Of a stretch of DNA of 64,000 nucleotides, positions 12,187 to 35,402 are shown piece after piece (position 1 is the stretch's first letter; each line of letters begins with the position of its first letter). Under the pieces are notes generated by a model. It did not search any database and was not told the origin of the DNA. It was given only the letters and a program-made list of their open reading frames with translations. The translations under genes and the position numbers were made by a program. The stretch is from Arcobacteraceae bacterium (GTDB lineage: Bacteria; Campylobacterota; Campylobacteria; Campylobacterales; Arcobacteraceae), in contig JAGLOP010000008.1 in assembly GCA_023138835.1 (NCBI GenBank), positions 1,149 to 65,148 on the forward strand. The letters run 5' to 3'.

Positions 12187-12197
12187 ATTATATCATA
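12187..12197 (-). promoter_or_regulatory. extended -10 promoter (TGaTATAAT) for the hipA-like gene
   Basis: The minus strand reads TATGATATAAT about 40 nt upstream of ATG 12148. Confidence 0.4.
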
Positions 12198-12410
12198 ATT
12201 TACTTATTTTAGCTACTTTTATTAAAATATTCTTAGCGATTGTCGTGATATGCTTAATTAAGTCAGGTTTTACAATTAATTATTCAGTTTTTCAGGGGTA
12301 CGGATAAAAATTATTCTCGGTACTCGTAGAAAAACCCGTTTTAACTCATAGGTTGGGTATTTGATTGATTTTCAATGTGTTATAAAGGTAGTGTTTATAG
12401 GGGTTATTAG

Positions 12411-12437
12411 TGGCGGACGAGGAGAGATTTGAACTCT
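12411..12437 (-). repeat. attL core (displaced 3' end of tRNA-Ser)
   Basis: TGGCGGACGAGGAGAGATTTGAACTCT is identical to 49565-49591. Confidence 0.9.
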
Positions 12438-12575
12438 TTGGCACTCATACACCTGATAATCGAATAAACACCAGTAAAATCGGGCTTTGTCTCTTATCTA
12501 TTAAGCGGATTTTAATACACAAATGCTTACATCTACCTAAAATCTTGTCAAGCCGACAAAATGGCGGTAAAAACC

Positions 12576-13771: not shown

Positions 13772-15363
13772 TGTCAGCCACACCAACTTTAAAATTAAAA
13801 ACTGCAAAACATATAGCACCTGAAATATTTACAAATCAAACACCAAAATTACATATAGGATTATTAAATTTTTTGGCGAGTCCTGATAAGTATAAAGTTG
13901 CTGCAATTTTCAGAGGTGCAGGTAAAACAACAGTTGTAACAAAAGTGGATACTTTCTCTTCTATATGGCATGAGCATGAACCTTATCATCAAATATTTTC
14001 AGTAAATGAAAAAAAAGCTAAAAAGTTTTTAAAAGATGTAAAAACTATGATACGAAATGCTATTCGTAAAGGTTATGATATTCAGATTAAAAAGTTTAGA
14101 GGAAAAACAAGAGCAGATGATAAAGACCTTGTTTGGAATGATACTGAAATAGAAGTTGTTGTTGATGGTAAGTTCTTTTGTTATGTTGAAGCATTAGGAG
14201 CTGGTCAAGACCCAAGAGGGGGGTCATTTAATTTTATGAGACCTACATTACAAACATTTGATGATATTGAAAGTAAAAGAGGTCAATACGCAATAACCAG
14301 CAAATCTAATAGAGAAAAATTACTAGAATGGTTTGAGGGAGATTGTTTACCAGCACTAGACCCTATATTTGGTAGAGTTAGATTTATTGGGACAATACTA
14401 CACGAAGATTCATTATTAAGTAATATTTTAAAAGATGATGAGTGGGTGCAATTCATACAACCAATTATTAAAGATGATGGTACAAGTGCATGGAAAGATA
14501 GATTTCCACTCACGGATGAAGATGCCATAAAGAAAAAAGAAGAAATATTCAAAGCTACTGGTAAAGTTGCAAAGATTAGATCCATACAAGCTATAAAAAG
14601 AGGACTTTATAAAAAAGGTCTTCATAATCTATTTTATCAAGAATATTTATGTTTACCTCAAGCTGAAGAAAAGAAACTCTTTAAAAAAGAAATGTTTAAA
14701 TATTATTCTCACATTGAATATGATGACAAGGTAAGCTATTTTAAACTAACTAATGCCTTAGAGCATCAAGAAGTTCCAATTAGAAAACCCAAAAATATAG
14801 TATTAAATGATGGTAAAAAAATAGCTATTGATAATACTATTGTATATAGTACAATGGATTTAGCTACAAAAGATGGTAAAGATAAAACTGTAATTATTAC
14901 TTGTGGATATGACAGTAACAATAATATGTATGTACTGGATATTTCCTATGGAGACTGGACACCATTTGATAAAAGTGTAAATGCAATTAAAGTATATAAA
15001 GAGTTCAAGCCCTTAAAGTTTGGTATTGAAAAGGCTGGTATGCAAAATGACTATTTTTATACTATAGATGAAGCACAAAAAGCAAGTGGTGTTAAGATAC
15101 CAGTTAAAGAATTATCACATGGTGGAATTGCTAAAAATATTAGAATAAAAAATATTCATCCATTATTTATGGTAGGAAAAGTGTTTTTTAATGAGAGTGA
15201 TCCAGCAACATCTATATTAGAAGCACAATTTAATGCTTTTGACCCTGAAGTAGAAGGAAGCAATGATGATTTAATTGATACCTTAGCCTATCAACACCAG
15301 TTTATCAAAGGTAGAACATTTGAAAATGAAGAATATGAAGAAGAAGAGGAGAGTTCATGGTAA
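13771..15363 (+). CDS. terminase large subunit
   Basis: Walker A AAIFRGAGKTTV, Walker B-like LQTFDDIE, GTILHEDS. Nuclease half has MDLATKDGKDKTVI and NDDLIDTLAY. GTG start. Confidence 0.9.
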   Translation: MSATPTLKLKTAKHIAPEIFTNQTPKLHIGLLNFLASPDKYKVAAIFRGAGKTTVVTKVDTFSSIWHEHEPYHQIFSVNEKKAKKFLKDVKTMIRNAIRKGYDIQIKKFRGKTRADDKDLVWNDTEIEVVVDGKFFCYVEALGAGQDPRGGSFNFMRPTLQTFDDIESKRGQYAITSKSNREKLLEWFEGDCLPALDPIFGRVRFIGTILHEDSLLSNILKDDEWVQFIQPIIKDDGTSAWKDRFPLTDEDAIKKKEEIFKATGKVAKIRSIQAIKRGLYKKGLHNLFYQEYLCLPQAEEKKLFKKEMFKYYSHIEYDDKVSYFKLTNALEHQEVPIRKPKNIVLNDGKKIAIDNTIVYSTMDLATKDGKDKTVIITCGYDSNNNMYVLDISYGDWTPFDKSVNAIKVYKEFKPLKFGIEKAGMQNDYFYTIDEAQKASGVKIPVKELSHGGIAKNIRIKNIHPLFMVGKVFFNESDPATSILEAQFNAFDPEVEGSNDDLIDTLAYQHQFIKGRTFENEEYEEEEESSW

Positions 15364-18571: not shown

Positions 18572-19201
18572 ATGGAAGTTATAGTAGTAGCCCACTCAAA
18601 AGGTGGAACTGGAAAGTCCACCATCATTTGGAACTTAGCACACTTCATAAGAAGTTTGGATAAACCAACAATCATTATAGATTTAGACTTCCAGCAAACA
18701 CAACATTATCTACATAGAATTAGAACATTAGAAGGCTTAACCAATCCACAAAATGATATTCCAGTATTTAGACCACAAACAGCAGATGCACTAATTAATA
18801 CATTAGAAAACTTTAGTGATCATTATATACTTATAGATGTAGGTGGATATGATAATGATATAAATCGTATAGCTATCAGCTGGGCAGATAAGATAGTAGT
18901 ACCTTTATCAGATAGTATTACAGATGTATTAGGATTTAAAACATTTGAAAATATATTAAAAGAGATAGACAATCCTTTTATAAACATAGTCCTAAACAAC
19001 ATCCACCCACTCACAAAGAACTTTAACACCATAAAAGAAGCCATAGGTTCAAATGAAGATATCAAACTATTAGACACAGTTATCAGAACTAGAAAAATAT
19101 ACAAAACTACAATGGGAGAAGGTAAATCAGTATTTGATATCAACCACACAGTGGCACAAGATGAAATAAAAGGATTATATTATGAAATTATCAGCAATTG
19201 A
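18572..19201 (+). CDS. parA: ParA/Soj-type partition ATPase
   Basis: Deviant Walker A VVAHSKGGTGKST. 209 aa. Confidence 0.9.
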   Translation: MEVIVVAHSKGGTGKSTIIWNLAHFIRSLDKPTIIIDLDFQQTQHYLHRIRTLEGLTNPQNDIPVFRPQTADALINTLENFSDHYILIDVGGYDNDINRIAISWADKIVVPLSDSITDVLGFKTFENILKEIDNPFINIVLNNIHPLTKNFNTIKEAIGSNEDIKLLDTVIRTRKIYKTTMGEGKSVFDINHTVAQDEIKGLYYEIISN

Positions 19202-20588
19202 TGAAGTAACAAAAGACACTACTAGAACAACTGGAGTAAGTCCATTTATGGAACTACAGCTGGAGTTAGTTTATCCAAATCCAAATCAACCAAGAAAACT
19301 CTTTGATAAAGTAAAGTTACAAGAACTAGCTAACAGTATTGAAACACATGGGCTATTAGAGCCAATAGTTGTAGTTAAAGATGATAATGGTAAATACATG
19401 ATAATAGCCGGAGAGAGAAGATACAAAGCTTCACTATTAAATGATGCAAGAACTATAAAAACTCACATCATCAAAGCTGATATAAAAAAGGTGCAAGAGT
19501 TAGCATTGATAGAAAATATCCAAAGAGATGATTTAACAGATTATGAGATAGCAAAACATATAGGTAAGTTATGGGATACTGGTGACTATGATAGAAAAAA
19601 AGATTTAGCAGATGTTATTGGTAAATCAGATACATATTTAAGTCGTGTATTATCTGTATTAAAATTAGATGAACATATCATTAGTCAAATTGAAAGACAT
19701 AATCTAACTATATCTTTATCTGTACTAGATGAAATTTCACGAGTGAAAGATGTAAAACTGCAAAATATGGCTTTTAATGATTATCTTGATGGAAAGATTA
19801 AAAGAGATGATATTAAGCATATTAAAAATAGAACTAAAGAAGTTCCTGAATTGTGGGAAAAGGTGGAAGATAAAAAACCAAAGAAACTAAATAGAGCTGG
19901 AGAACTTGAAGCTAATGTTTGGTTTTTGGATGGATTAAAAGTATTAAATCAAGAAGAAGTTGTTTCAAAACTAGAAACAAATAAGCATTATAAATATAGT
20001 ATAAAAAAAACAACTACACTGCATAGTCATATTTTAGAAGATGAAAATGGCATAACCTTTCAATTTATTGCTACTGAAGAAAATATAAAAGCACTAAAAG
20101 GCAAAAGTATCTTAGAAGATTTTAGTAAAGAGATGTCACTTAATAATATATATACAATGACAATAGATATAAATAGTAAAAGAGGTATGTTTGAAAAAAA
20201 AGATTATTTAAGTTCTCTAGCTTGTACAAATGAAAATGGCAGAACATGGGTAATTTGTACCGAGGGTGACTTTGAGGGAACTCTTGAAATAACAAAAGGT
20301 AAAGAGCTTATTAAAAATTGCTCTAATCATTGTTATGAAGTTATTTTAAAAGAGATTGATAAAGAACCGCAAATAGAAAATGATGATGAAACTGTAAGAG
20401 ATATACTTATCAAAAAAAGTAAAATAAAGAATTTAACATCAAAAGTAAAATCATTTGATAATTGTACTGTTAGCAACGATAAAGATAAAACTATTTTTAA
20501 TCCTGAAAATGGATTAAAAATCACAGTAAATGTAAGAGATTTGTTTTTAGCAAGTAAAAAATACAAAATATATTTTGAGGAGATATAA
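19182..20588 (+). CDS. parB: ParB-like partition/nuclease-domain protein with long C-terminal extension
   Basis: ParB N-domain LLEPIVVVKDDNGKYMIIAGERRYKAS and LIENIQRDDLTDYEIA. Overlaps parA. Confidence 0.85.
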   Translation: MKLSAIDEVTKDTTRTTGVSPFMELQLELVYPNPNQPRKLFDKVKLQELANSIETHGLLEPIVVVKDDNGKYMIIAGERRYKASLLNDARTIKTHIIKADIKKVQELALIENIQRDDLTDYEIAKHIGKLWDTGDYDRKKDLADVIGKSDTYLSRVLSVLKLDEHIISQIERHNLTISLSVLDEISRVKDVKLQNMAFNDYLDGKIKRDDIKHIKNRTKEVPELWEKVEDKKPKKLNRAGELEANVWFLDGLKVLNQEEVVSKLETNKHYKYSIKKTTTLHSHILEDENGITFQFIATEENIKALKGKSILEDFSKEMSLNNIYTMTIDINSKRGMFEKKDYLSSLACTNENGRTWVICTEGDFEGTLEITKGKELIKNCSNHCYEVILKEIDKEPQIENDDETVRDILIKKSKIKNLTSKVKSFDNCTVSNDKDKTIFNPENGLKITVNVRDLFLASKKYKIYFEEI

Positions 20589-20714: not shown

Positions 20715-21299
20715 ATGGCACGACCAAAAAACACAAAAAAAGACAGACTACCAATTATGGAATATGAATACAACCAAATAGTATTTAAAACAAAACATGA
20801 TAAAGCTATGAAATCAGTAACCAAAAGAAAACTACTTCGTGCTTATGGATTATTATATTGCTTTGGTGCAAGGATATCAGAAATCACAAACTTTACACTT
20901 GATGATCTAAACTTTATCTATATGCATAAATACATCATACTTACAGATACCAAATCAAATGCAACACAAAGACTGATTATAAATGACAAAGCCATAGAGA
21001 TACTAAAAAGCTTAGATTATAGTGATTGTGAAGATGCACTATTTTACAGACCAAACACCACAACACCTATGAATATTGGTGGACTTGAAAAACTTATCAA
21101 TACCCACCTAAAACACCAGTTAAATGTATTATATACAACTCATAGCTTCCGTGCCGGTTACATCACTAGAATACTTGAAGCAACAGGTAATCCAAAAATA
21201 GCACAAAAACTAGCACGACACAAAGATATTATCACAACATTAAGATATAGTGGTGCAAGTGATAGACAAATAGATGATGCTTTGGATAAGATATTTTAA
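20715..21299 (+). CDS. small tyrosine recombinase (catalytic domain only, 194 aa)
   Basis: GARISEI (box I Arg), HSFRAGYIT (H-x-x-R), LARHKDIITTLRYS (His/Tyr). Confidence 0.8.
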   Translation: MARPKNTKKDRLPIMEYEYNQIVFKTKHDKAMKSVTKRKLLRAYGLLYCFGARISEITNFTLDDLNFIYMHKYIILTDTKSNATQRLIINDKAIEILKSLDYSDCEDALFYRPNTTTPMNIGGLEKLINTHLKHQLNVLYTTHSFRAGYITRILEATGNPKIAQKLARHKDIITTLRYSGASDRQIDDALDKIF

Positions 21300-21337: not shown

Positions 21338-21409
21338 GGGGTATTAGCTCAGCGGTAGAGCGGTGAGTTTCTAACTCATGCGTCGTCGGTTCGAATCCGA
21401 TATACTCCA
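21338..21409 (+). tRNA. tRNA-Arg(UCU), phage-borne
   Basis: GGGGTAT/ATACTCC acceptor, GCTC-AGCGGTA-GAGC D arm, GTGAG-TTTCTAA-CTCAT anticodon arm, GTCGG-TTCGAAT-CCGAT T arm. No encoded CCA. Confidence 0.9.
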
Positions 21410-21445
21410 CTTAAGTCCCTCTCGGGGGGATTTCTAATTTAGTTA

Positions 21446-23482
21446 TCAAAAATCAAACTTAGCTTTTTTAAAATTAAAAGTTTTATCATCACCACTCAAA
21501 TCAAAACCAACTCTTTTACCAGCCTTTTTAATTTTTCGTGCAGTATCATCATATTCTTTTTGATTTTCTTTTTTGTCTCTACTTTTTGATTTATCTTTAA
21601 ACTTCTTTAGATTTTTAGCTTCTTTAAGCCTTGAACTTAACTCTTTTTTCTCATTAAATCTTCGTACACCAACACCACGACCACCAAGTTCAGCAAAACT
21701 CATATCTTCTTTATAATAATTCTTTTGCTCTATACCCATAAGCTTTTTACTAAACCTTTGACCATACCTACCAAATGTAAGTGGTGGCAAATAGTTTTCA
21801 GCCATAGTCAATATCTTCTTACCAGCTTTAATATGACTTTCATCATACTTACCGCTTATGTTATAACCAAGTGGAGTTTTACCACTAGCAATATTAACCA
21901 TACCACCAACAAAACCAAATCCAGTATCAAAACTTATATCAATACCACCAAACTTCATAGCTGGTATCATTCTTCCTAAGTTCATATACCAGCTACCACC
22001 AACATTAACCCACTCTTTAGCACCAAATAAGTTAGCTTGATTTTTAGCCCAAATAGGTTTAAGTAAATCTTCTTCACTAGAACTATTATCTAGCCAACTA
22101 CTAGCACCAGCTCCCAGTAATGCAGTTTGAAGTAAAGCATATCGTACTGGATGTTTAGCTATCACTTTCATAGTAGCTGGAGTTGCTTTATATACATAGT
22201 GCATAAATGGAAATAATCCACTTTTATCAATAGTCCGTACAAAATCAGGCAACGGAGTAGAATAATCAACATAAACTTCACTCGCCTTTTTAAAAGCATC
22301 TTTTTCAGCTACTCCATCATCCATCAATCTTTTAAATGAAGCAACTTTAAAAAGCTTATCTTCCCAGTCATAAAGCTTTCTTATTTTATCTCCAGCTTTA
22401 CTACCTTGTGCAAGATATAAGTTCTTAACGATACTTAGTCCAACATTGATTTTCTTTTTATCAGTTATGTGTACATCAATATCTTCAAAATCTTTTAGAC
22501 TACTATTCAATCCATATTTATTAGCAGTATCAACCAGCTTTTTAAACTTCTTAGGATTTTTAACTTTCATATACATCACTTGACCCAATGCAATCAAATC
22601 TCCATTAAGTCCAGCCAACATAACATTACTACCGATATTGTATAAATGTGTTACTGGATTTTTAACTGTAACATTCACTTTGATATGATCTATTACTGGA
22701 AACCAATACTTTTCCATTATTCCAAGTGTCTCACGAGCTAGTTGTGAACTCTTTAAACTATTAGATATCTCTTTTGGTACATATTTACCAGCTAAAGCAC
22801 CATACTTATAAACTCCACCATTAGTCTCATTAGATATTTTTACACTATTTTCAAACTCTTCATCTTTAGCAAACTTATCGGCTATACTTTTAAGTACACT
22901 AGCTTTAAGTATTTGAGTTCTTTGTTCAGCAAGTGTCTTAGGTATTACAACACTGGCATCTTCAATCATACTCATAGCTATTCTCTCATCATGAGTTAAA
23001 TTTTTTCTTTTCTTAAATTTCTTATCAAAAAAGATTTTACCCATCAATCCTTTTTCATTTAAATAAGCAGCATAATATCTTTTTAGATAATCTTTGATTT
23101 TACTCTTAGATTTTAATGCACCAAGTTTAACTAACTCATCAGCATTATTATCTATTTTTGCTCTCATTTTCTCATATAAGGGTTTTAACTCTTTAGGTAG
23201 CTTCAATGAACTCATATCACCATTTAAAGCTTGTACTAGCATCTCACTTTCATTTGGTAGCAGTTCATCAGCTAAATGCTTTTGAATATCTCCAGCTTGT
23301 TCATATATATCCCCTAAAGCTATTTGATATTCTTTTATACTTTCAGCAAAATCCTTTTGCATCTTAGTAGTTGTAAGTATATTATACTTATCAAACTCAT
23401 TTAGCTTATCTCCCATCTTAGAAAATATCTTATCAATACTATCATCTAATTTTACAGTTGCTTTTTTTATTCCACAATTCAT
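21446..23482 (-). CDS. large virion-module protein of unknown function (678 aa, very basic C-terminus)
   Basis: Starts 1 nt after the stop of the 2149-aa gene. No motif recognised. Confidence 0.7.
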   Translation of the reverse strand: MNCGIKKATVKLDDSIDKIFSKMGDKLNEFDKYNILTTTKMQKDFAESIKEYQIALGDIYEQAGDIQKHLADELLPNESEMLVQALNGDMSSLKLPKELKPLYEKMRAKIDNNADELVKLGALKSKSKIKDYLKRYYAAYLNEKGLMGKIFFDKKFKKRKNLTHDERIAMSMIEDASVVIPKTLAEQRTQILKASVLKSIADKFAKDEEFENSVKISNETNGGVYKYGALAGKYVPKEISNSLKSSQLARETLGIMEKYWFPVIDHIKVNVTVKNPVTHLYNIGSNVMLAGLNGDLIALGQVMYMKVKNPKKFKKLVDTANKYGLNSSLKDFEDIDVHITDKKKINVGLSIVKNLYLAQGSKAGDKIRKLYDWEDKLFKVASFKRLMDDGVAEKDAFKKASEVYVDYSTPLPDFVRTIDKSGLFPFMHYVYKATPATMKVIAKHPVRYALLQTALLGAGASSWLDNSSSEEDLLKPIWAKNQANLFGAKEWVNVGGSWYMNLGRMIPAMKFGGIDISFDTGFGFVGGMVNIASGKTPLGYNISGKYDESHIKAGKKILTMAENYLPPLTFGRYGQRFSKKLMGIEQKNYYKEDMSFAELGGRGVGVRRFNEKKELSSRLKEAKNLKKFKDKSKSRDKKENQKEYDDTARKIKKAGKRVGFDLSGDDKTFNFKKAKFDF

Positions 23483-23483: not shown

Positions 23484-26400
23484 TTAACAATCCTTTACAT
23501 CAAATGCAGTGATAATATTTCCATTATCATCATAATGTTTAGCTTCAAACTCTTTAAGTTGAGCATCAATACTTTTAAAATCATCTTCATAAACTTTAAG
23601 CCCATCTTGAAGCTTTGTAACAGCTTCTTGATACATAGGTGTTTTATCTTCTCTTGATTTTATATATACTTTTTTTCTATCTCTATAATCTTTTAAATCA
23701 GCTTCATACTTCTTTTTATACTCTTTTTGTTTATCACTTTTTTTATAAGCTTTTTCATAAGCTAGTCTAAAAGCTTTTGTAGGAGTATCATCAGTTAAGC
23801 TATCAGTAGTTTGTTTGATTATCTCATTGTTTCGTGTCAAACTCTCTTTAGCTCCAATAATCTTAGCTTTCATATAGTTCAACTCTTCACGAATACTGTC
23901 ATATTCACTCTCTAGCTTATCAGCTTCAAACCTCACTATCATTTGAGCCTTGACAAGTGGATTAGTTTCCATCTCTATAAGTATTTCAGCTTCAGTAGGC
24001 ATACTTCCACTATCATCAGTTATTTCAATTCTATCTTTAACTTCAGCATCCCAAATAGCATCGTTCCAACCTTTCTTACCCATTACAGTAGAATACATCA
24101 AACTATCAAATGTACCCTCTTGAAAGAAATAATGAACATCAACATTATCATATTTATTACCGTGTCTCAAACCCCTACCATTTCGCTGGATTATTTCAGC
24201 TGGTGTCCAAGGTAAATCAAGATGATAGATATTAGTTGTATATGTTTGTATATTCATACCCTCTCCAGCACTCTTTGTACTACCAATAACAACTTTAATC
24301 TTTCCACCTTGATAAGCATTAACTATCTCTTGCTTCATCTTACTAGCTTTCTCTCCACTTGCTGGAACTTCTTTACCATCTAAATTAGTTACAGTTTTAC
24401 CATTGATAATAGCTACTTGATTTTTCTTATATCCATTTGTAATAAGTCCGTTTTTAATCTCTTGATGTAGGTTTTCACTTAGTACACTATGACCAGCACT
24501 ATCCAAAAATATTATTTGACCAGCTTTTTTATCTTTTTTAAATTTACTGGATGCAAGTTCTATAACTCTTTGAACTTTATTGTTATCAGGTGTAGGATAT
24601 AGCAAATCTCCAAATTCAGCACGAGCATACAATCGTGGATCAACTGAAGCAGTTACACCATTACTAAATATTCCCATAACTTCGTGTCTCTTTTGATAAT
24701 CTTCTTTAGCTTCTTTTAGTCTCTCTCTAATATCTTCAAAGGCTACCATACTTTCATCACTAGCAGTTATCATCTCTTTAATAATATTTTCATTTGGTAT
24801 CTTGATAAGTTTTCGTTTAGCAAATTCACTCATAGGAATTCTATCAACATATCTATCCAGTATACTTCTAAGTGCAACAGCATTTTTAATAGCTATTATT
24901 CCATTTTCAAACTTACCATTTTTACTAAGCTTTTGACCAAACTCAAAAAATGTTTCAGCAAAATCTCTATCAGTTTTTATACCATATTCATCAAAGATAT
25001 TATCATCTAAATGTTTTAGCATAGTAAATACTTCAATAGGTTTGTTAGGTGTTGGTGTAGCATCTAGTAAATATATATTTTTACCATTATTTAAACTACT
25101 GATATACTTAGTTTTAAATCTAAAATCATAAGCTAAAGCACTATCAAGAGATATACTTATGAAGTTACCAGCCTTATCAGTTTTAAGATTTAATCCAAAA
25201 GCTTTACCAAGTTTATTAGATACTAGCTTACTATTTACACCTACATTTTTAAATGCTCTAGCTTCATCAGTTATAACTGCATCAATACCCAGCTTATCAA
25301 TAGTGATTTTTTTATTAGCATTAGTTTTTGATAAACTATCTAAATACAAATCAATCTTTTGTTGTTGTATCTCTTTGGCACGACCTGTTAAATCTTCATT
25401 CTTCATATTTTCAGATATTAACTTTCTAGCATAGCTTTGTTCTATATCATCAGGTAGTTTAAGTTGTTTAAAACCCTCGTGAGATATAAGTACATAATCA
25501 GCATTAGTATTACCCAGTTCAAAAAGTCTTTTTTCTCTTACATTTTTAGGCAATCCACCTAAACTTATAATCTTAGCATTAGGATATAACTCTAATATCT
25601 CTTTTTCCCAGTTCTTAATTACTTTAGATGGTACAACCAATAAAGGCTTTTTAGCAATCCCTTTAGCTTTCAATACTCTAGCTAATACAATACCAGCCAT
25701 AGTCTTACCACCACCAACATCATGAGCATTTATATTTTTACCCTCATATAAAGCTTTTATAACCCATTCAATCTGATTTTTTCTAAGTTTGATATGTGCT
25801 GGTAACTCATCAAGTACATCTTGTATAAGATATTGAGCCTTACTATAATTAGGCTTTACATAGAAGTTCATTTTTCTATTGTAAGCATCTTCAAATTTAG
25901 CTTTTAATACTGCATCACTTTTTATATCATTTCTAAGTCTTGCTTGAACTTCTTTAACTTCATATTGAGCATCTTTCAATCTTCTTTTATAGCTTGATTG
26001 ACTTTCCCCATCTCTAGCTTTTATTAAAGCATCTTGATTAATGTATTTATTATAAGTAGCACCAACTCCAGTAGCTTGTATTTTTCTTACTTTTTTTACA
26101 CCACCTTCCTTTTGCTTCACTTCTTTAGTTACAGTTTGATATTCAAATAGTTTAATACCAGCTTCACTTACCCAAGGCTCTATACCTTTGAAATCTATCT
26201 CATCAACAGTTTTAATAGTAGGTAGTGTATCTTGTAGTTTAGTGTGTTGTTTATCAACTAAATTTTTAATGTCTCCATCAGGTAACTTATCTAAGTTTAA
26301 TTGTGTAGCATCAAGTTTAGTGTAAACATTACCAGCATAATATAATATATCATTAGCAATAGTATTTTCATCTGCATAAGCATACCCAAGTTTAAGTGCT

Positions 26401-29400
26401 TGTACCAGTTCAGACTTATCCAAGTGTTTAGCATCACTTAGATTTATGACACCTTGTGTATTTTCATTATAAAGTAATCTATCGTGAAGTTTAGATTTAG
26501 CAGTTATCTCTAGCTTACCACTATTTACATATTTAGTTTGTGTATTAAAGCTATCAGCTGGATTAAACTTATCATCAAATAAAGCACCATACTCATAAAG
26601 CTTATCCATACTATCAGCTTCCCTAAAAAGTTTTTTAAGTGTATTGTCTTTTAATGGATGGGTTTTATATTTAGCTTTATAATCTTCTATTAGATTTATA
26701 TCCATAGTATCAGTTATCTTTTGAAGTAAGTTTATTTTATCAGCAGTTTTTCCAGTTAGTGTTTTATATATCTTAGCTTTACTATCTATATCATCAAACT
26801 CTACAACTTTATCAACTACTTTTATACCATTTTCATCCATAACAAAATCAGCACCGGCATAAGTATAATCCACATCATTATCTTTAGCCCACTCTTGAAA
26901 ATCTAAACTATTTATTGGTATAGTCTTTTTTGTTGTTTTTGTAGTTGAACTTTCCCCAGTGAAAGTTTTATCATAAGCTTTATAATCCAACTTCATATTA
27001 CTATAATCAGCTTTTCCAGTTATCTCATAAGCTGGTGTACCATACATTTTATTTACACCAACTTTAATATCTCCAAGTATATGTGATGGATTTTTTACAT
27101 AATACTCATTCATATAAATATCATCATCAGTTTTAATAGACTTAGTAAACCATCTATTAGGTCTTACAAGTGTATCTTCTATTTTTATTCCATCAGGTCT
27201 CTTTTGTAAGAAGATAATATCAGTAACCACATCAGTATGAGCATTTTTACTAAATGTTTTAGCTGGTAATCTATATGCACCAATTACATCAGCTTTAGAT
27301 ACTATCTCTTTTCTTATCTTACTATCTACTTTATCCATTACACCAGTAGAAGTTACAAAAGCTACAATCCCATTATCTTTAACTTTATCAAGACTTTCTA
27401 CAAAATAATAATCGTGTAAAGCTTTTATATCACTTCTACCTTTAGTTATACCAGTACCCCTATCTTCTAAAAATGGAACATTAGATATAACCAAATCAAA
27501 ATCTTTACCCTTGAAACTCTCATAACTCATATTGTAGTTTTTAGCTTTTGGATAAAGTCTTTTAACTACTTCGTGGTTAGTTTTATCAATATCAATAGTA
27601 GTCCAGTCCATACCATAACCAAACCCTACAAAGTTACCACTTCCTACACTTGGCTCTAAAGCTTCTTTAGGATTAAATCCAGCTTCAAAAATAGCACCAT
27701 ACATAGCTTTGATAGTTTCATAAGGAGTATAATGTTCAGTTAAACTACCATAACCACCTTGACCCAATCCACCAGTACCAGTATATTGTCTCAAAATATT
27801 TTTATCATCATCAGTTAAAGTAGTTATATCTTTTTTAAGTATCTCTTGCACTTGATTATTAACTTCAATTCTTTTACCTTTAGTTAATTCAACTGGTGGC
27901 TTATTCATTAGAGTATAATTATCTAGTGTGGAAAGTTCCCCATCACTAACTCCACTTTGTTCTGATACCACTTTGTCTCTTCCAAGTTGGGCATTGTTTC
28001 CATCATTATCTGTAATGGCTTCGTGTCGTTCCATTCTTCCAGCTTCATTGAGTAACCCATCATCACTATTATTTGATTTAGTATCTCGTTCAATGTTTGT
28101 AGATATGGTGCTACCATCATTCGTGCTTGTTTCTTGTCCAGTTTGTTCAGGCTTTGCTCTTGTATCGCTTGGGCTTGTGTTACTGTTTTCATTATCTCCA
28201 TTCTCTCTTGAAGTGGAAATATCTTCTCTATTTGTTCCTTGATTTTCAATATTTGCATCTTTTATATCCTTAGTTATTGTTTCTTTTAAAGCTTTATGTG
28301 TACTCTCAATATTTTGTGAACTTTTATCCACAACAAAATCATCAAAACTATCAAGGTTTTTATTGATGATACTATGTACTACTACATTAGCTAACTCATC
28401 ACTAACCCCACCTTGTTTAAGTTTTACCATCATTTCATTAGGATTATTAACACCAGCTTCAATACTGTTTTTAGCTATATCTCTAAGTCTTGTACCAGCA
28501 AAACGATTTTCTACTGGCATACCATCATTTATAGTTTTAGTTAAATCTAATTCTTGTTTAGTTGGAGTTAGTTGTTTATTTATTTCATCTTTGATTGTAA
28601 CTGCATCAGCACCAGTCTCAATTAATTCTTGTGATATTATTTTACTTTGTTCCACAGATTGAGTTGATATCTCTTGTGCTTTTTTCATATCATATATTTT
28701 TTTAGCATTAATACTATCTATTATATCTTGACCTACATTTTCAGCCCAGCCATCATAGTCAGCATATATTACATCTTTATGAGTTATCATCTTTTTAGAT
28801 TTAGCTTCAAGTTGCATCACTTGTTCAGGTGTTAAAAGTTCAACTTCTACCAATTCTCTATATACTACTGGTAATTTTTCCATAGTTGCTCTTACTACTG
28901 GCAAGTTGTCATATATCATCTGAAAGTTAGGTTTTCCTTTTAGTTCAGGATGTACACTATATTGATTTACTCCAGCTGCTTCACTTCTAAATTCATCACT
29001 AACTTTAGGATAGTTACTCATAGCTTCTTGAAGTTTAGCACTCACTTCCTCAGGACTAAGTGGCTTACCACCACCCATATTTAAAAGTTCATTATCTAAT
29101 ATATCACTAGCTTCACTTTTTTCAAGTTTTATAGGAGTTGAACTTTTAGAAACCAATCCCCCAAATGTACCAAATGACCCACCAGCAACAGCACCACCAC
29201 CAGCACTTTGGAAAGCTATTTTATTTGCTTCATCATCACTCTTACCTTGACCCTTAGCGATAATATATTCAGCACTACTATTAACAACAACACCCTCGGC
29301 AGTACCAGCAGTACCACCAATAATACCCTTTACAAGTAATGTACGACCAAATCTACCAGCTAAACTACCAGCACCAAATGAAACTGCATTAAGTGGATCA

Positions 29401-29933
29401 GTTATCATCTCTACTACACCTTGAGTTGTCCACTCACTTGGATGAGTTACAGTATCAGCCATAGTAGATGCACCAGCTTTTATATTTTCCCATGGTGTTT
29501 TAGTATTTTGTGATTGTTTATCTAGTTCTTGAAGTTCAGCCAATCTCTTTTTAGATAGTCCAGCTCTTGATGTTTTTTGCTTTTTAGTTTCCATCAACTC
29601 ATTCATATTATTCATATTGTTAGTAACTTCATCACTTACTAAATCAAAACCTAAAAATTCAGCACCAGCATCAAGTCCGGCAACTGTACGATTTACAGTT
29701 GTAGTAGCACCTCTTAAAACACTTCCAACGACACCATCTTCCATAAATATACTATTGTTAAAAGCTTCATTTTTAGATTGTGTTGTTTGATTTACTTTGG
29801 ATTGTATATTTTTTTGTTGTGCTTTTTGCTCTTTGTGTCTTGCAGTTGCAAGAGATACAATCTCTTCATCACTTTTTGTCAGTCTTAAAATATCAAGTTC
29901 ATTTTTTGATATTATATCTCTTATTTTAGCCAT
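23484..29933 (-). CDS. 2149-aa polyvalent protein: N-terminal module, disordered linker, N6-adenine methyltransferase and SF2 (SNF2/DExH-like) helicase (P1 DarB-like)
   Basis: MTase motif I EPSVGSGNF (27630-27656) and motif IV VISNVPF (27471-27491). Helicase motif I DVGGGKT (25701-25721), motif II VITDEARA (25255-25278), motif VI QRNGRGLRHGN (about 24160-24195). Confidence 0.9.
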   Translation of the reverse strand: MAKIRDIISKNELDILRLTKSDEEIVSLATARHKEQKAQQKNIQSKVNQTTQSKNEAFNNSIFMEDGVVGSVLRGATTTVNRTVAGLDAGAEFLGFDLVSDEVTNNMNNMNELMETKKQKTSRAGLSKKRLAELQELDKQSQNTKTPWENIKAGASTMADTVTHPSEWTTQGVVEMITDPLNAVSFGAGSLAGRFGRTLLVKGIIGGTAGTAEGVVVNSSAEYIIAKGQGKSDDEANKIAFQSAGGGAVAGGSFGTFGGLVSKSSTPIKLEKSEASDILDNELLNMGGGKPLSPEEVSAKLQEAMSNYPKVSDEFRSEAAGVNQYSVHPELKGKPNFQMIYDNLPVVRATMEKLPVVYRELVEVELLTPEQVMQLEAKSKKMITHKDVIYADYDGWAENVGQDIIDSINAKKIYDMKKAQEISTQSVEQSKIISQELIETGADAVTIKDEINKQLTPTKQELDLTKTINDGMPVENRFAGTRLRDIAKNSIEAGVNNPNEMMVKLKQGGVSDELANVVVHSIINKNLDSFDDFVVDKSSQNIESTHKALKETITKDIKDANIENQGTNREDISTSRENGDNENSNTSPSDTRAKPEQTGQETSTNDGSTISTNIERDTKSNNSDDGLLNEAGRMERHEAITDNDGNNAQLGRDKVVSEQSGVSDGELSTLDNYTLMNKPPVELTKGKRIEVNNQVQEILKKDITTLTDDDKNILRQYTGTGGLGQGGYGSLTEHYTPYETIKAMYGAIFEAGFNPKEALEPSVGSGNFVGFGYGMDWTTIDIDKTNHEVVKRLYPKAKNYNMSYESFKGKDFDLVISNVPFLEDRGTGITKGRSDIKALHDYYFVESLDKVKDNGIVAFVTSTGVMDKVDSKIRKEIVSKADVIGAYRLPAKTFSKNAHTDVVTDIIFLQKRPDGIKIEDTLVRPNRWFTKSIKTDDDIYMNEYYVKNPSHILGDIKVGVNKMYGTPAYEITGKADYSNMKLDYKAYDKTFTGESSTTKTTKKTIPINSLDFQEWAKDNDVDYTYAGADFVMDENGIKVVDKVVEFDDIDSKAKIYKTLTGKTADKINLLQKITDTMDINLIEDYKAKYKTHPLKDNTLKKLFREADSMDKLYEYGALFDDKFNPADSFNTQTKYVNSGKLEITAKSKLHDRLLYNENTQGVINLSDAKHLDKSELVQALKLGYAYADENTIANDILYYAGNVYTKLDATQLNLDKLPDGDIKNLVDKQHTKLQDTLPTIKTVDEIDFKGIEPWVSEAGIKLFEYQTVTKEVKQKEGGVKKVRKIQATGVGATYNKYINQDALIKARDGESQSSYKRRLKDAQYEVKEVQARLRNDIKSDAVLKAKFEDAYNRKMNFYVKPNYSKAQYLIQDVLDELPAHIKLRKNQIEWVIKALYEGKNINAHDVGGGKTMAGIVLARVLKAKGIAKKPLLVVPSKVIKNWEKEILELYPNAKIISLGGLPKNVREKRLFELGNTNADYVLISHEGFKQLKLPDDIEQSYARKLISENMKNEDLTGRAKEIQQQKIDLYLDSLSKTNANKKITIDKLGIDAVITDEARAFKNVGVNSKLVSNKLGKAFGLNLKTDKAGNFISISLDSALAYDFRFKTKYISSLNNGKNIYLLDATPTPNKPIEVFTMLKHLDDNIFDEYGIKTDRDFAETFFEFGQKLSKNGKFENGIIAIKNAVALRSILDRYVDRIPMSEFAKRKLIKIPNENIIKEMITASDESMVAFEDIRERLKEAKEDYQKRHEVMGIFSNGVTASVDPRLYARAEFGDLLYPTPDNNKVQRVIELASSKFKKDKKAGQIIFLDSAGHSVLSENLHQEIKNGLITNGYKKNQVAIINGKTVTNLDGKEVPASGEKASKMKQEIVNAYQGGKIKVVIGSTKSAGEGMNIQTYTTNIYHLDLPWTPAEIIQRNGRGLRHGNKYDNVDVHYFFQEGTFDSLMYSTVMGKKGWNDAIWDAEVKDRIEITDDSGSMPTEAEILIEMETNPLVKAQMIVRFEADKLESEYDSIREELNYMKAKIIGAKESLTRNNEIIKQTTDSLTDDTPTKAFRLAYEKAYKKSDKQKEYKKKYEADLKDYRDRKKVYIKSREDKTPMYQEAVTKLQDGLKVYEDDFKSIDAQLKEFEAKHYDDNGNIITAFDVKDC
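26951..26971 (-). repeat. 21-mer ATAAAACTTTCACTGGGGAAA inside the giant gene (encodes DKTFTGE, aa 988-994)
   Basis: Exact reverse complement of 47850-47870. Confidence 0.9.
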
Positions 29934-30003: not shown

Positions 30004-30606
30004 TTACTGAATTTCAGTATCTTCTAGTTTAAATTTCGCTGCTCTTTTAATGGCTCTTTTTTTATTTTGTTCCTTACCCCATTTAATACCGTTAAAATTT
30101 TTACTATTTGGGTCTAATTCATTTCCAGTATCGGTAAATTTTCCACCTTTTTTCCAATCTCTAACCTTACCAAAACTAACATTTTCATATATTCTTTTAC
30201 CATCAGTCCCATCAGTCCCAGTATCATAGACACCAACTCTATCACCATTTTTTGCAGTAAAAACATCAACCATTTTTCTTTTAGTTTTATCTTCATGTAC
30301 ATCATTGATTTTATTTGCCAATACAAAAACTTCATCATCTGATAAGTCTTTTGTAGTTTTAGGATGCAGTTTTTTCATACCACTAATAATAGAAGTTTTA
30401 GTTTGTGCATCTTTATCTTTTTTATTTTTTGCTAAATCAAACTTAGCTTTTCTATCATTAGTTTGTTGTTTTTGCTCCCCTAATTTAAAAGCAACATCTC
30501 CAACAGCACGACCCAATCCAGCCATAGCAGAACCTTTACCGCCTTTACCTAAGTTTTTTACCAACTCACTATCAGGCTTGAAGCCTTTATTATAAAAATT
30601 ACCCAT
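30004..30606 (-). CDS. hypothetical virion-module protein (Lys-rich)
   Basis: 200-aa ORF in the tightly packed minus-strand operon. Confidence 0.6.
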   Translation of the reverse strand: MGNFYNKGFKPDSELVKNLGKGGKGSAMAGLGRAVGDVAFKLGEQKQQTNDRKAKFDLAKNKKDKDAQTKTSIISGMKKLHPKTTKDLSDDEVFVLANKINDVHEDKTKRKMVDVFTAKNGDRVGVYDTGTDGTDGKRIYENVSFGKVRDWKKGGKFTDTGNELDPNSKNFNGIKWGKEQNKKRAIKRAAKFKLEDTEIQ

Positions 30607-30608
30607 AA

Positions 30609-30875
30609 CTACTCTCCTAAAGCCACTAATGGCTCTTCTTTCTTTTTAACTCCAAAAGAACTATTAAAAGCACTATCTAAATTACTTTGTGCTAAGTCCT
30701 CTTTGGCAATACCACGATTATAATCTGCTTTTTGTATATCCAAAAATCTTTGTGATATATCAGCTTGTTTTTTTAAAGCTTGTACATTTTTATAAGTACC
30801 ATATCCTTGTGCTACACCACCTACAATAGTTCCAACTGTTTTTAAATTATCAGCCTTTTTTAACCACTCCCACAT
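30609..30875 (-). CDS. hypothetical virion-module protein
   Basis: 88-aa ORF in the operon. Confidence 0.5.
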   Translation of the reverse strand: MWEWLKKADNLKTVGTIVGGVAQGYGTYKNVQALKKQADISQRFLDIQKADYNRGIAKEDLAQSNLDSAFNSSFGVKKKEEPLVALGE

Positions 30876-30885
30876 TTTATATCCT

Positions 30886-32622
30886 TTAACCTATTTTATT
30901 TAAGTGTGTCTGCTTTTTTGTCACAATATTTAAAAGCTTTTGATTTTTATATTTCTTATCTTTTTTTACAAACATAGCATATAAAGTTCTCACTAATTGT
31001 GAATACCCATCAAAAGCTAATTCATATTCTTTTGCCTTGATAAGCTCTACACCTACACTTAAATACTCATCATATATCCATTGATATATCTCTTTATTAT
31101 TAGAAAGTAAATCTATTTCTTTAACTATTCTAGGAGATAAAATATAATATTTTTGCATTAAAGTTTTACCACCTTTTGTATGCAATACATAATTGTCTCT
31201 ATAGTCCTCATATATTTTAACAGTATCAGTACCAAGTGCTTTATCCATTGCAGTAGCTATAAAACTTCCATCCCCACCAGTATCAGCACCATTGTTTGCA
31301 TCTCCAATACTTGACAATCCACCAGTATTTACACCCTCTAGTCCAGCACCTAAACCATTTGTATCATTATTAAATCCTAACCCTTGTGAATTACCTAAGC
31401 CACTTTGAAAACCACCAGTGCTATCAGATAATTGTCCAAATGAATTACTATTAACTGCATCAGATATACCACTAATACTATTCCCAAATGAGTCAGTAAA
31501 TCCACCAACACCATTCATACCTGTAAAGCTTCCACTCATAGAACTAAATCCTATATTATTACCCATTGCATCAGTTAAACTAAGTCCAGTAGATGATGGA
31601 TTAAAAGTATCAGTATTTGCCATACCAAATGAAAACACCTCACTAAGTACATCAGATATCCCTTTTGACATACTAATATCAGATGAAAACATACCATTAC
31701 CCATGGAGTTAGTACCTTGTATATCTCCACCAAAACCAAATGTAGTATCAAGACCCATAGCCACTTCCATAGCTTCATCAAATGCTAATCCCACTACAAA
31801 ACCAACAGCTAAACTCATAGCTACATTTGTTATACTAAGTGCAGATACTACTGATTGAGATAACACACCTTTCATAGTTCCAAAAACTGTACCCATCAAT
31901 GCAGATGATAATGTTTTACTAATAGTAACTTCTTGCTGGGTAATAGTTTCTATCATAGTAAATGTAATAGATAAAGGGTTCATATGAAACATACTAAATT
32001 GAGTATCAAATGCAGCTTTTGTCTCTTCTAAAGAAGCTGGATGAGTATTAGTCTCTATCCCTATATTATCTATTGCATTATCTCCACCATCAGAAATATT
32101 AAAAAAACCATTTGTAGATACTGATTGTCCAGTTATTGTATTTGTTATAGTAGTTGTGTATTCAAGTCTTAAGATATTAGTGTCGTTAATCCTTTGCAAT
32201 AAATCAAGCATTCCACCTTTGACAAGTGAATCTACTAAAGCAAATCCACCATTCAAAAATAAGAAATTACCATTTAACAATGACCTTGACATACTAAAAG
32301 TTTGTTGTTTATTATCATAAGATGGTATATCTGTAGGCGAAAAATTAACACCACCGGAAAAACTCTCATTTCTTAAAGTTCCACCAGCATACCATTCATT
32401 TTTGTCTTTTGCATTTGGTATATCTATATTAACTACTTGTACAATTTGTGAAGTTCTTCTTTGTAAACTTTGTTCTAAACTAGATAAATACTCATTACCT
32501 TCAGCTAAATAGTTTGTAACCTTTGTTTGGTCATAGTGACTATCTCCAACATAAGCACTTACCTTAGCTATATCTTCTTTAGTTGATGTTATTAAAGCTT
32601 GATAGCTAGATATTGTATCCAT
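30886..32622 (-). CDS. virion-module protein with Gly/Ser/Asn-rich low-complexity centre
   Basis: 578 aa with a long GxxG/SxG-type region (..GFSSMSGSFTGMNGVGGFTDSFGNSISG..). Confidence 0.65.
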   Translation of the reverse strand: MDTISSYQALITSTKEDIAKVSAYVGDSHYDQTKVTNYLAEGNEYLSSLEQSLQRRTSQIVQVVNIDIPNAKDKNEWYAGGTLRNESFSGGVNFSPTDIPSYDNKQQTFSMSRSLLNGNFLFLNGGFALVDSLVKGGMLDLLQRINDTNILRLEYTTTITNTITGQSVSTNGFFNISDGGDNAIDNIGIETNTHPASLEETKAAFDTQFSMFHMNPLSITFTMIETITQQEVTISKTLSSALMGTVFGTMKGVLSQSVVSALSITNVAMSLAVGFVVGLAFDEAMEVAMGLDTTFGFGGDIQGTNSMGNGMFSSDISMSKGISDVLSEVFSFGMANTDTFNPSSTGLSLTDAMGNNIGFSSMSGSFTGMNGVGGFTDSFGNSISGISDAVNSNSFGQLSDSTGGFQSGLGNSQGLGFNNDTNGLGAGLEGVNTGGLSSIGDANNGADTGGDGSFIATAMDKALGTDTVKIYEDYRDNYVLHTKGGKTLMQKYYILSPRIVKEIDLLSNNKEIYQWIYDEYLSVGVELIKAKEYELAFDGYSQLVRTLYAMFVKKDKKYKNQKLLNIVTKKQTHLNKIG

Positions 32623-32625
32623 TTT

Positions 32626-33402
32626 CTAAAGCTTAGTAACATTCTTTTGAAAAGTTTTAAATGATATAGTAGAACCGGTTAATTCTTTAAAAACATCAAA
32701 TACGGCATTCCAACCGACATCAGGTACGACTAAACCACCAGCACCAAGAGTACCAAACAATTCAGTTAAACTATCATTACCCCTAATCTTATTATTATAA
32801 ATAACACTAGCGATAAGTTGTTGTGCTTGTGTTTGTATGAAATTTGTTTCTTCAGCAATTTTAAGATTTTGAAGTTCAGCAGTAGATAATCCACTACCAG
32901 CATTTATAACTTTCTTAGCTACTCTTTTATAATCTCTAAACAATACAAATGTTTTTAAGATATCATTATTATCATCATCTTGACCGATAAGAACTTCTAT
33001 TTCAGTTTCATTAATAAGTTGAGTTTCTGTCTTTACATTATCATTATCAAAGTATGATCTATAAAAAGTATAAGTGAAACCAACACCACCATTTTTCAAT
33101 TGCTCTGCAAAATGTTTCTGTTCTTTGATATTGGTATCAATTCTAGCACTATCAAGTTTAAAAGGTTTCATCCTTTTTTCTAGTTCTATTTGCTCGTTAT
33201 TCATCATAACTTGTGTCTTAGATACAGTAGCTTGTAAACTTTGTGTCATAGCACCAACCATAACATTACTTATAACACTAGCTTCTTCTTCCCCAGTCAT
33301 ATTTCTATTTTCAAGTAAATCTAAAAGTGTATCTTTTGATTTAGCTAAAAAATTATCATAATATGTATTGATATCTTTTTTATAATCTTCAGTAAGCATC
33401 AA
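32626..33402 (-). CDS. hypothetical virion-module protein
   Basis: 258-aa ORF in the operon. Confidence 0.6.
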   Translation of the reverse strand: MMLTEDYKKDINTYYDNFLAKSKDTLLDLLENRNMTGEEEASVISNVMVGAMTQSLQATVSKTQVMMNNEQIELEKRMKPFKLDSARIDTNIKEQKHFAEQLKNGGVGFTYTFYRSYFDNDNVKTETQLINETEIEVLIGQDDDNNDILKTFVLFRDYKRVAKKVINAGSGLSTAELQNLKIAEETNFIQTQAQQLIASVIYNNKIRGNDSLTELFGTLGAGGLVVPDVGWNAVFDVFKELTGSTISFKTFQKNVTKL

Positions 33403-34584: not shown

Positions 34585-35061
34585 TTATAATTTATCTCTA
34601 TTAAATACAAACATTTTTTCTACAAAAAATAAAACTCTTTTAATTATCATAGATAAAGCGTCAAACTCTTCTATTTCTTTCCCTGAAACGATTGAATATA
34701 TATTTCCTATTATTGAATAAGCTTCAGATATGATAAGAGCTGATACAAGAACTGTTAAATACAATTCAAAGTTTAAACTTAATCCTTTAGCCATTAAAGC
34801 GATAGTTAAAACAAGCAGAACAACTAAAGCCTTTTTAAATAACCCTGAAACAGCTCTAAGGCTCTTTAATGTTACTTTATTTACTATAATAGCTTTTAAT
34901 ACACCAGTAAAATAATCTATTCCAAGCAAAATACCTAATATCACAAATGATTCAGCTGGAACACTTAAATAAGTAAGTAGTGGAATACATGGTATATATA
35001 AAAAGTTTAGCATTGATGATTTTGCTATTGCTGTTGATTCTAATGGCATCACACACCCCAC
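34585..35061 (-). CDS. holin (4-TM, TcdE/phage_holin_4-like)
   Basis: Polytopic 158-aa protein with an LGIDYFTGVLKAI motif typical of that holin family. Confidence 0.6.
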   Translation of the reverse strand: MGCVMPLESTAIAKSSMLNFLYIPCIPLLTYLSVPAESFVILGILLGIDYFTGVLKAIIVNKVTLKSLRAVSGLFKKALVVLLVLTIALMAKGLSLNFELYLTVLVSALIISEAYSIIGNIYSIVSGKEIEEFDALSMIIKRVLFFVEKMFVFNRDKL

Positions 35062-35402
35062 TCAATATCAGCTAATGCAGTTAAGTTTGTCTCTGCTACA
35101 TTACTGATATCTATGATAGAATTTTTAAATGCTAAATACTCCACTTTTTGAACATCATCATCAGCTAGTTCGGATAAGTTGATTTGCTTCCATATTGGAT
35201 ATTTAGCCAGTATGATTTTCCCAGCTTTAGCTCTAATGTCAGAAATTTTTTTATCAGCCACTATTTTATCCTCTGCTACCATATCAACAGTCATATCAAT
35301 ATTATAGTTTGTATAATAACTACCATCTTCTCTTTGTGTTAATTCAGATTGAAGTACCATTGTAGGTACTCCTTCTATATTTACTAGTTGTTTAATACTC
35401 AT
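35049..35402 (-). CDS. hypothetical protein downstream of the tail fibre (possible fibre chaperone)
   Basis: 117 aa. Overlaps both neighbours. Assigned by position only. Confidence 0.45.
   Translation of the reverse strand: MSIKQLVNIEGVPTMVLQSELTQREDGSYYTNYNIDMTVDMVAEDKIVADKKISDIRAKAGKIILAKYPIWKQINLSELADDDVQKVEYLAFKNSIIDISNVAETNLTALADIEWGV

Follow-up and report, generated by a model that had tools for sequence, protein, structure and literature searches.

The DNA methylase-helicase dyad described by Iyer et al. (2017, PMC5512222) combines an EcoKI/TaqI-like N6-adenine methyltransferase (MTase) with a C-terminal superfamily 2 (SF2) ATPase of the SWI2/SNF2 clade, and its defining features are an LPD36 GxGU motif, a TP-capped helix, an AdoMet motif I and an N-x-P-(Y/F) motif. 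In the DarB protein of phage P1, the dyad is N-terminal, behind a capsid-targeting signal of 30 amino acids (aa), and is followed by a 700-aa C-terminal tail (PMC9024508). The C-terminal part of the N4 ejection protein gp50 is required for encapsidation. In phage DEV, the C-terminal part of gp71 binds the periplasmic tunnel protein (PMC11445570), and the suppression of cysteine was described as a conserved trait of Schitoviridae ejection operons, related to the passage through the periplasm (Lokareddy et al. 2024, PMC11445570). Phage SU10 packs five ejection proteins, which are encoded by adjacent genes. Here, we analysed a 64,000-nt stretch of an Arcobacteraceae genome (contig JAGLOP010000008.1, hereafter the window), which holds a 37,195-bp prophage with a gene for a giant protein of 2149 aa (23484..29933, minus strand), followed by that of a 678-aa partner (21446..23482, minus strand). 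A first-pass annotation had taken the giant for a virion-packaged, injected protein like P1 DarB. We propose that the giant and its partner are probably the two halves of one N4-type ejection protein with a DarB-type cargo, their chains joined end to end by a disulfide; we infer from sequence the packaging and the injection, as well as the anti-restriction role and this bond.

The junction between the two chains is marked by a pair of single cysteines, which the first-pass annotation had missed. The only cysteine of the giant is its last residue (Cys2149, TGT, codon 23487-23489), and the only cysteine of the partner is residue 3 (codon 23474-23476, MNCGIKK). This arrangement recurs among the relatives of the Campylobacterota lineage, in which the gene is split: 10/10 split giants from the protein search have one cysteine, at the last residue, and in the split loci examined (about 18) the giant has one cysteine, which is the last residue in all but L015, where it is penultimate. 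Among 120 partner homologs (38-85% identity), a cysteine lies within residues 3-9 in 109 and is the sole one in about 104, while the remaining homologs without an early cysteine look 5′-truncated. The one full-length apparent exception that was checked (P0158) turned out to have a mis-called start, the protein really beginning with MAC behind a giant ending in ...MLEC, and another (P0201) is a remnant beside a transposase. The two cysteines are also kept where the genes are not adjacent, as in L016, in which the partner gene is upstream of the giant with two genes between, and in L026, with a gap of 253 nt. In many relatives, the two ends belong to a single cysteine-free polypeptide. Giant and partner form one reading frame in P0058 (46% identity of the partner over 640 aa, E 2e-167) and in the IMG/VR loci L020, L031 and L036, and the fused forms of the same clade have no cysteine at all. 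In a neighbour-joining tree of the partner domain, the split form with cysteine and the fused form without it swap at least six times, although this tree is crude and its 'split' state was scored partly by the cysteine itself.

The partner open reading frame (ORF) begins 1 nt after the stop codon of the giant, whose last codons (AAGGAT) double as the Shine-Dalgarno sequence of the partner gene. The acidic or glycine residues that precede the terminal cysteine are partly explained by this, since the Shine-Dalgarno sequence lies in those codons, but the cysteine itself is not. We found no description of a split polyvalent form with a terminal cysteine pair in the literature searched, which suggests that, as far as this literature goes, the two-chain form is an undescribed variant.

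The simplest explanation of the cysteine pair would be a disulfide that joins the two ends made by the split and thereby restores the linear topology of the single chain. The same conservation data apply equally to other roles of the thiols, such as the formation of homodimers (giant-giant or partner-partner), a link to a third virion protein (the portal, for instance, has 2 cysteines), metal binding or transient mixed disulfides with the Dsb enzymes of the host while the periplasm is crossed. We consider these roles rather unlikely, since they predict no coupling of the cysteines to the split, whereas a bond that replaces the lost peptide link does, and the cysteines are found exactly at the two ends that the split creates, jointly present in split forms and jointly absent from fused ones over several transitions.

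The two terminal residues stand in a cluster that is otherwise devoid of cysteine. There is 1 cysteine in the 2149 aa of the giant, 1 in the 678 aa of the partner and 0 in the four genes upstream, while cysteine makes up 0.38-0.91% of the residues encoded by the other genes of the window; from this background frequency, the chance of finding 0 cysteines in the remaining 2825 residues is 2e-5 to 6e-12. Of the partner-bearing giants of at least 1000 aa, 62/75 have 0 cysteines, as do N4 gp50, gp51 and gp52 and VvAW1 gp01, and the homologs from integrative and conjugative elements (ICEs) have 5-29. The partner also shows a weak match to the last ~150 residues of the N4-type vRNAPs, here N4 gp50 (aa 355-450 of the partner against aa 3349-3449), and three methods agree on the region. 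PHROG 2206 (N4-type virion RNA polymerase, vRNAP) matches the partner with an E-value of 2.3e-6, the hhalign comparison with gp50 gives E 0.0027 at a probability of 11%, and a local hidden Markov model (HMM) comparison gives 14.7 bits, compared to at most 1.6 bits for 60 shuffled controls (20 of them of N4 gp50). P0326, a partner-bearing representative of 3540 aa, showed no similarity to N4 gp50, and the giant contains no RNA polymerase (RNAP) domain, its cargo being the MTase-SNF2 pair. Because of the cysteine depletion, which is more telling than the match, the weak gp50 match itself and the ejection genes known from SU10, we read the giant as a putative ejection protein with a DarB-type dyad in the cargo slot. 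By this analogy, the packaged and injected role that had been proposed is kept as the best reading, with a delivery logic that appears to resemble that of N4 gp50 and DEV gp71, and not that of the P1 head internal proteins.

We found that the two ends of the giant-partner pair are conserved independently of the middle. The N-terminal module (aa 1-565, 28239..29933, minus strand) has a conserved start (MAKxxDIL), an invariant PxEWTxQG...DPLNxxSFGAGSLA stretch that is Gly-rich and hydrophobic (aa 165-262) and, at aa 469-483, the motif NDGMPVENRFxGxRL. The first protein search returned full-length relatives of the giant at 62-76% identity, together with proteins that share the first ~565 aa alone and carry LPD1, PBECR2, DUF3560 or a reversed helicase-MTase cargo; on such other cargos, the N-module is 36-78% identical (P0006-P0011, P0058, P0241), and two relatives are nearly free of cargo (P0241, 870 aa; L027, 769 aa). 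A further protein search with the N-module alone, limited by its word filter, gave a single protein. The partner (76.7 kDa, pI 9.5, net charge +34, in agreement with the earlier description of a 678-aa basic protein 1 nt downstream) belongs to a large family, since a profile of 120 homologs found 3156 cluster representatives in a library of 1.84 billion proteins. The distant matches are mostly proteins of 1000-5000 aa with the domain at the C-terminal end, and about 22 of them also begin with the N-module. The named homologs are from Campylobacterota in every case, and a tblastn search of phage records with the partner found four Helicobacter pullorum prophages alone and no N4-like phage.

Structure prediction by domain, which the first-pass annotation had recommended, was informative for the partner (AlphaFold2, AF2: pLDDT 84, pTM 0.81, mostly helical), and much less so for the N-module, as described below. 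The partner model has 57 matches in BFVD, only to the last segments of phage polyvalent proteins (TMq up to 0.69), which include ART-PolyVal, zeta toxin, LPD, lytic transglycosylase, RelA/SpoT and methylase giants, and it matches nothing in the PDB below E = 1 (Foldseek). Neither end module matches a Pfam or NCBIfam model, and a search of NCBIfam for a 'PLxRFG' model gave no hit for the partner or for the ends of the giant. In summary, as judged from these sequence matches, the N-module and the partner form the conserved termini of a family of giant polyvalent proteins, between which the cargo is swappable. Far from the uncharacterised parts that they had been called, they are the most informative ones. 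The 'polyvalent' label itself is well founded: by its sequence the giant fits the concept of polyvalent proteins put forward by Iyer et al. 2017 (PMC5512222), as the same N-module recurs with LPD1, PBECR2 or DUF3560 cargos and the partner fold recurs at the ends of effector giants. Many partners (P0129-P0205 and others; L009, 9491-12211) are 850-950 aa long and have extra cargo between the N-terminal cysteine and the conserved domain, in the form of PBECR1/2/3 nuclease-like domains; because of this cargo, both chains can carry effectors.

The giant itself (ATG start, 240.7 kDa, pI 6.0) is encoded by a 6.4-kb ORF, which is far beyond chance in DNA of 30% G+C. The four parts and all of the motifs given by the first-pass annotation were found on the minus strand, in agreement with Pfam and PHROGs, and so were the extents of the N-terminal region (~565 aa) and of the linker (aa 566-680, 27894..28238), which is acidic (pI 4.3), of low complexity and rich in Ser, Asn and Thr. 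The linker is followed by an LPD36-like helix bundle with a TP motif and the N6-adenine MTase core (27054..27893), by a helical middle region (aa 961-1370, 25824..27053) that is kept among dyad-bearing relatives only, by the SWI2/SNF2-type SF2 ATPase (23964..25823) and by a C-terminal helical tail (aa 1991-2149, 23487..23963) that ends with Cys2149, all on the minus strand. All the sequence features of the dyad are found in this order: the GxGU motif of LPD36 (YTGTGGLG, aa 717-724), the TP motif (HYTPYE, aa 734-739), MTase motif I (EPSVGSGNF, aa 760-768) and motif IV (SNVPF, aa 817-821), followed by the SNF2 ATPase with its Walker A (DVGGGKT, aa 1405-1411), motif II (DEAR, aa 1556-1559) and motif VI (QRNGRG, aa 1916-1921, within QRNGRGLRHGN, aa 1916-1926). 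Pfam finds SNF2-rel_dom at 1388-1566 (3.6e-10) and Helicase_C at 1856-1925 (2.1e-9), PHROGs finds 'DNA methyltransferase' (7.5e-148) and 'DarB-like antirestriction' (5.7e-117), and the best PDB sequence matches of the ATPase are SsoRad54 and Snf2.

A BLASTP comparison of the giant with P1 DarB gave three collinear blocks, of 30% identity (LPD36 and MTase) and of 22% and 44% (the two helicase lobes). YTGTGGLG, immediately ahead of the MTase, aligns with YTGEGGIG of DarB, both proteins have helicase motifs I, II and VI, and motif IV is NVPF in the giant, in P1 DarB and in an E. faecium ICE homolog. An N-x-P-Y/F motif with a hydrophobic x also occurs in active adenine MTases such as Erm and KsgA. 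The 143 phage records that match the giant do so at aa ~730-2049 only, with 25-30% identity, and many of them are annotated as DarB-like. Hence, on the sequence evidence, the MTase-SNF2 pair and the P1 DarB dyad are genuinely homologous; the motifs of the pair are intact, and its MTase and ATPase activities and a protection of incoming DNA from restriction are putative. The rest of DarB has no match, as the alignment covers only aa 35-276 and 847-1548 of DarB, and the N-terminal capsid-targeting sequence and the C-terminal ~700 aa are unmatched in the giant. A tblastn search of the window with five P1 proteins (Hdf, DarA, DdrA, DdrB and Ulx) found no homolog (best E 0.43). The giant is thus not a DarB ortholog in architecture or packaging, and the earlier comparison with DarB stands for the cargo only. 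In a public metagenome-assembled genome (MAG; L002, GCA_030634865.1, DAOVZW010000010.1), the giant gene is 100% identical except for a run of T4 instead of T5 (window 24505-24509), which splits it into called products of 1817 and 340 aa; this is probably an assembly error, though it could be a phase-variable run.

The cargo holds the position that the vRNAP has in the N4 and DEV giants, between the injection-linked N-terminal part and the tunnel-binding C-terminal part, and SNF2 ATPases translocate on duplex DNA (PMC5512222). This would fit an SNF2 translocase that is anchored in the ejection complex and reels the genome into the cell, methylation being secondary. However, close relatives with the same ends bear a non-motor cargo (LPD1/zincin-like, PBECR nucleases, DUF3560) or almost none, and the cargo therefore cannot be what DNA entry relies on in these phages. 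Of the homologs, only DarB has been studied, and non-restricting hosts are infected without it, which also counts against such a motor. Hence, we find this role of the cargo unlikely, and keep to a delivered, DarB-type effector.

The giant gene is the second-to-last of a minus-strand late operon and closes a run of cysteine-free genes; it had been placed 'among structural genes', which this position refines. The four genes directly upstream (30004..33402, minus strand) encode proteins of 258, 578, 88 and 200 aa with 0 cysteines each, and these are candidates for the remainder of an ejection-protein cluster. In the relatives, the gene order is a ~90-aa gene, a ~200-aa gene, the giant, a partner of 680-906 aa and then a small recombinase on the opposite strand; counterparts of the 88- and 200-aa genes again precede the giant, and a gene of ~425-590 aa replaces the 578-aa one. 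The 578-aa protein (30886-32622) is Gly/Ser/Asn-rich with a strongly hydrophobic segment (aa 262-280) and may provide the ejection apparatus with a tunnel or membrane component. It also passes the NCBIfam cut-off for a 'CFI-box-CTERM domain' (aa 454-520, 45 bits).

Many phages encode MTases that are not packaged, and one relative (L005) has an extra N6_N4 MTase gene, so that the giant could be taken for an ordinary enzyme that is made late and stays in the cytoplasm, where it would methylate the progeny DNA ahead of packaging or serve in replication or recombination, and its location in the late operon would be incidental. This seems very unlikely to us in view of the cysteine depletion, which extends over 2825 residues and through the whole family, of the place of the gene in a cysteine-free cluster that ends the virion operon and of the homology to DarB, which is virion-borne; moreover, the end modules are shared with giants that carry cargos (nucleases, ART, zeta toxin, lytic transglycosylase) meaningful only if delivered as effectors. 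Nor is the size of the gene exceptional. The giant gene takes up 17.3% of the 37,195 bp between the att repeats, as the earlier figures of ~17% and 37 kb had it, and the giant and partner genes together take up 22.8%. This had been called an unusually large investment, but the share is within the range of other short-tailed phages, such as VvAW1 (gp01, 10.9 of 38.7 kb, 28%), N4 (gp50, 10.5 of 70 kb, 15%) and Lastavirus (19%, PMC9505181).

The least probable alternative is that the cysteine codons form a recoding site (a ribosome hop as in T4 gene 60, a frameshift or a readthrough) that yields one fusion of ~2825 aa: the last TGT of the giant is directly before the TAA, a second TGT follows 10 nt further on, fused relatives exist and tRNA-Cys could re-pair with TGT or TGC, but all three events at the junction were rejected, since the permuted and the unlinked locus (L016, L026) keep both cysteines, each partner gene has a Shine-Dalgarno sequence of its own and a normally spaced ATG, also where these lie outside the ORF of the giant (L017, L023), the frame offset of the partner varies (+1, -1, 0) with landing distances of 8 to ~40 nt, and the absence of all other cysteines would be left unexplained. 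The co-variation of TGT and TGC is uninformative on hopping, because one tRNA reads both codons.

For the two-chain ejection protein that we propose, the course of events would be as follows. Both chains would be made late and packed into the head together with the other cysteine-free proteins of the cluster. Outside the cell, the last-residue cysteine of the giant and Cys3 of the partner would form a disulfide that places the chains end to end, giving the pair the same linear topology as its single-chain relatives, so that it could still be threaded through the tail. At infection, the complex would be ejected ahead of or with the DNA, and, by analogy with N4 and DEV, the N-module and the partner may take part in an envelope-spanning ejection apparatus. 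The MTase-SNF2 dyad would reach the cytoplasm, where it may track the entering DNA and methylate adenines or otherwise block restriction in cis, like DarB, and in this reducing compartment the disulfide may be cleaved, so that the cargo chain would come free of the partner. The more specific proposal, that the lost peptide bond is replaced by a disulfide formed only outside the cell, which would keep one linear thread through the tail and allow the redox-triggered release of a DarB-like effector, has in our estimate an even chance of being correct. Such a release would be without a described counterpart among phage ejection proteins.

Apart from the crudeness of the tree, several observations weigh against this reading. 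The link to N4 gp50 covers only ~100 residues, with scores that are marginal (a probability of 11% by hhalign), the N-module HMM has no match in gp50, and the 258-, 578-, 88- and 200-aa proteins show no similarity to N4 gp51 or gp52. The AF2 model of the N-module is all-alpha but of low confidence (pLDDT 58), and its conserved Gly-rich stretch (aa 173-262) is only moderately hydrophobic (maximum Kyte-Doolittle value 1.38). The 'release' would be only partial, because the cargo stays tethered to the N-module after the disulfide is reduced. There is also no matching threat from the host in sight, as no restriction-modification genes were seen in the window, where the flanks of the prophage hold RHS cassettes, SoFic and HipA-like genes. 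Finally, a distant group (L028, L030 and L032, IMG/VR UViG_2881293083, 2881301707 and 2791355312; P0253, P0255) has a protein of 1180-1780 aa that starts with MICPNNFA (Cys3), has the partner domain in its C-terminal half and a second cysteine ~23 residues before the end, and no N-module giant was seen among the listed plus-strand ORFs of at least 600 aa in loci of this type; the cysteine pattern of L028, L030 and L032 is unexplained by the end-to-end model.

The element that carries the locus is bounded by an exact 30-nt direct repeat. The left copy (attL, 12408-12437) is an exact copy of the 3′ end of a tRNA-Ser, and the right one (attR, 49573-49602) lies inside tRNA-Ser(gct) (49576-49665), as its 3′ end, and adjoins the integrase gene (48376-49515). 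Within these limits, the prophage encodes a large terminase (TerL, 13771-15363), ParA (18572-19201), a 468-aa ParB (19182-20588), a tyrosine recombinase of 194 aa (20715-21299), a tRNA-Arg(tct) of its own (21338-21410) and a primase/D5-type helicase, and its late operon, on the minus strand, includes an SU10-type portal (40313-41890), an SU10-type major capsid protein (38238-39170), a tail fibre (35392-37557) and a holin (34585-35061). As the prophage has no sheath or tape-measure gene, a short-tailed virion is a reasonable inference, and the element can reasonably be taken for a temperate short-tailed SU10-type prophage of an Arcobacteraceae host. An origin from a conjugative element was considered, as the Firmicute ICE giants are the most numerous sequence matches, and was rejected on the SU10-type portal, the capsid protein, TerL, the holin and the att sites. 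No near-identical phage DNA was found in the phage collection searched, and an Arcobacteraceae MAG encodes a protein with 100% identity to the partner. The plasmid-type partition genes (ParA/ParB) suggest that the phage may, besides being integrated, be maintained as an episome. The relatives also carry ParA and the small recombinase in their loci.

The tail-fibre gene contains an internal duplication, seen as a 119-nt direct repeat (36371-36639, 87% identity, 150-nt spacing). Besides attL at 12408, there are degenerate copies of the tRNA-Ser att core (90%) at 8900 and 10380 (window 8891-12469), and these extra copies delimit two small islands stacked on the same tRNA-Ser, one with a Fic/DUF4172 protein (9072-10214) that matches the SoFic model of PADLOC (E 7.8e-34) and the other with a HipA-like kinase (10550-12148). 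Further out, the left flank (1240-7760) has two RHS-repeat proteins (981 and 562 aa) with small ORFs after each, followed by an ankyrin-repeat protein and an AraC regulator, a polymorphic-toxin locus that is unrelated to the prophage. The whole window has a G+C content of ~30%.

DarB-like giants are widely annotated, and the present comparison places the DarB-type dyad, in short-tailed phages, as one of many cargos between two conserved ends, and tentatively links DarB-like and polyvalent giants to the N4-type ejection apparatus. The end-module family, cysteine-free and with over 3000 cluster representatives, offers a practical sequence signature for finding injected effectors. The split forms are a natural experiment, as one cysteine per chain exactly at the break makes a sharp, testable prediction, and they hint at a way in which effector proteins are loaded and released by phages; foreign proteins could be brought into phage particles with the help of the end modules and the cysteine link.

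When set beside P1 DarB, the giant has the same LPD36-MTase-SNF2 order, belongs to a similar size class (DarB has 2255 aa) and is likewise encoded by a late or virion-associated gene. DarB is a head-internal protein that protects against type I EcoB/EcoK restriction in cis. In DarB the dyad is N-terminal and there are 9 cysteines, compared to an internal dyad after 680 unrelated residues and 1 cysteine in the giant. P1 is a myovirus, and the stepwise incorporation of DarB into its head needs Hdf, DarA, DdrA, DdrB and Ulx, for all of which the window lacks a homolog.

The likeness to N4 gp50 and DEV gp71 would lie in the three-part plan, in which an enzyme is carried as cargo between a helical region at the N-terminus and a C-terminal region that serves encapsidation or the binding of the tunnel. 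It also lies in the near-total suppression of cysteine and in the position as the last gene of a cluster that encodes small and mid-size cysteine-free proteins. Their cargo is an RNA polymerase, while here it is the MTase-SNF2 dyad, and their C-terminal part belongs to one chain with the rest, while here it is a separate polypeptide with a cysteine at the break. The phages differ as well, the one described here being temperate, with a genome of 37 kb and an SU10-type capsid and portal, and the N-modules are without detectable similarity. With the polyvalent proteins (Iyer et al. 2017; VvAW1 gp01 of 3640 aa, the Lastavirus 'PLxRFG' proteins and the Firmicute ICE giants), the family has the dyad, LPD1 and the PBECR1-3 domains in common. 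The polyvalent giants also sit right after virion or ejection genes, as here, and VvAW1 gp01 is without the partner domain, unlike the present family. By analogy only, and without homology, the proposed link recalls the AB-type bacterial toxins, in which an effector chain and a delivery chain are held together by one disulfide outside the cell and can separate in the reducing cytosol. In these toxins, the two chains come from a nicked precursor, while here they are two gene products, with a bond that would run from the C-terminus of one to the N-terminus of the other.

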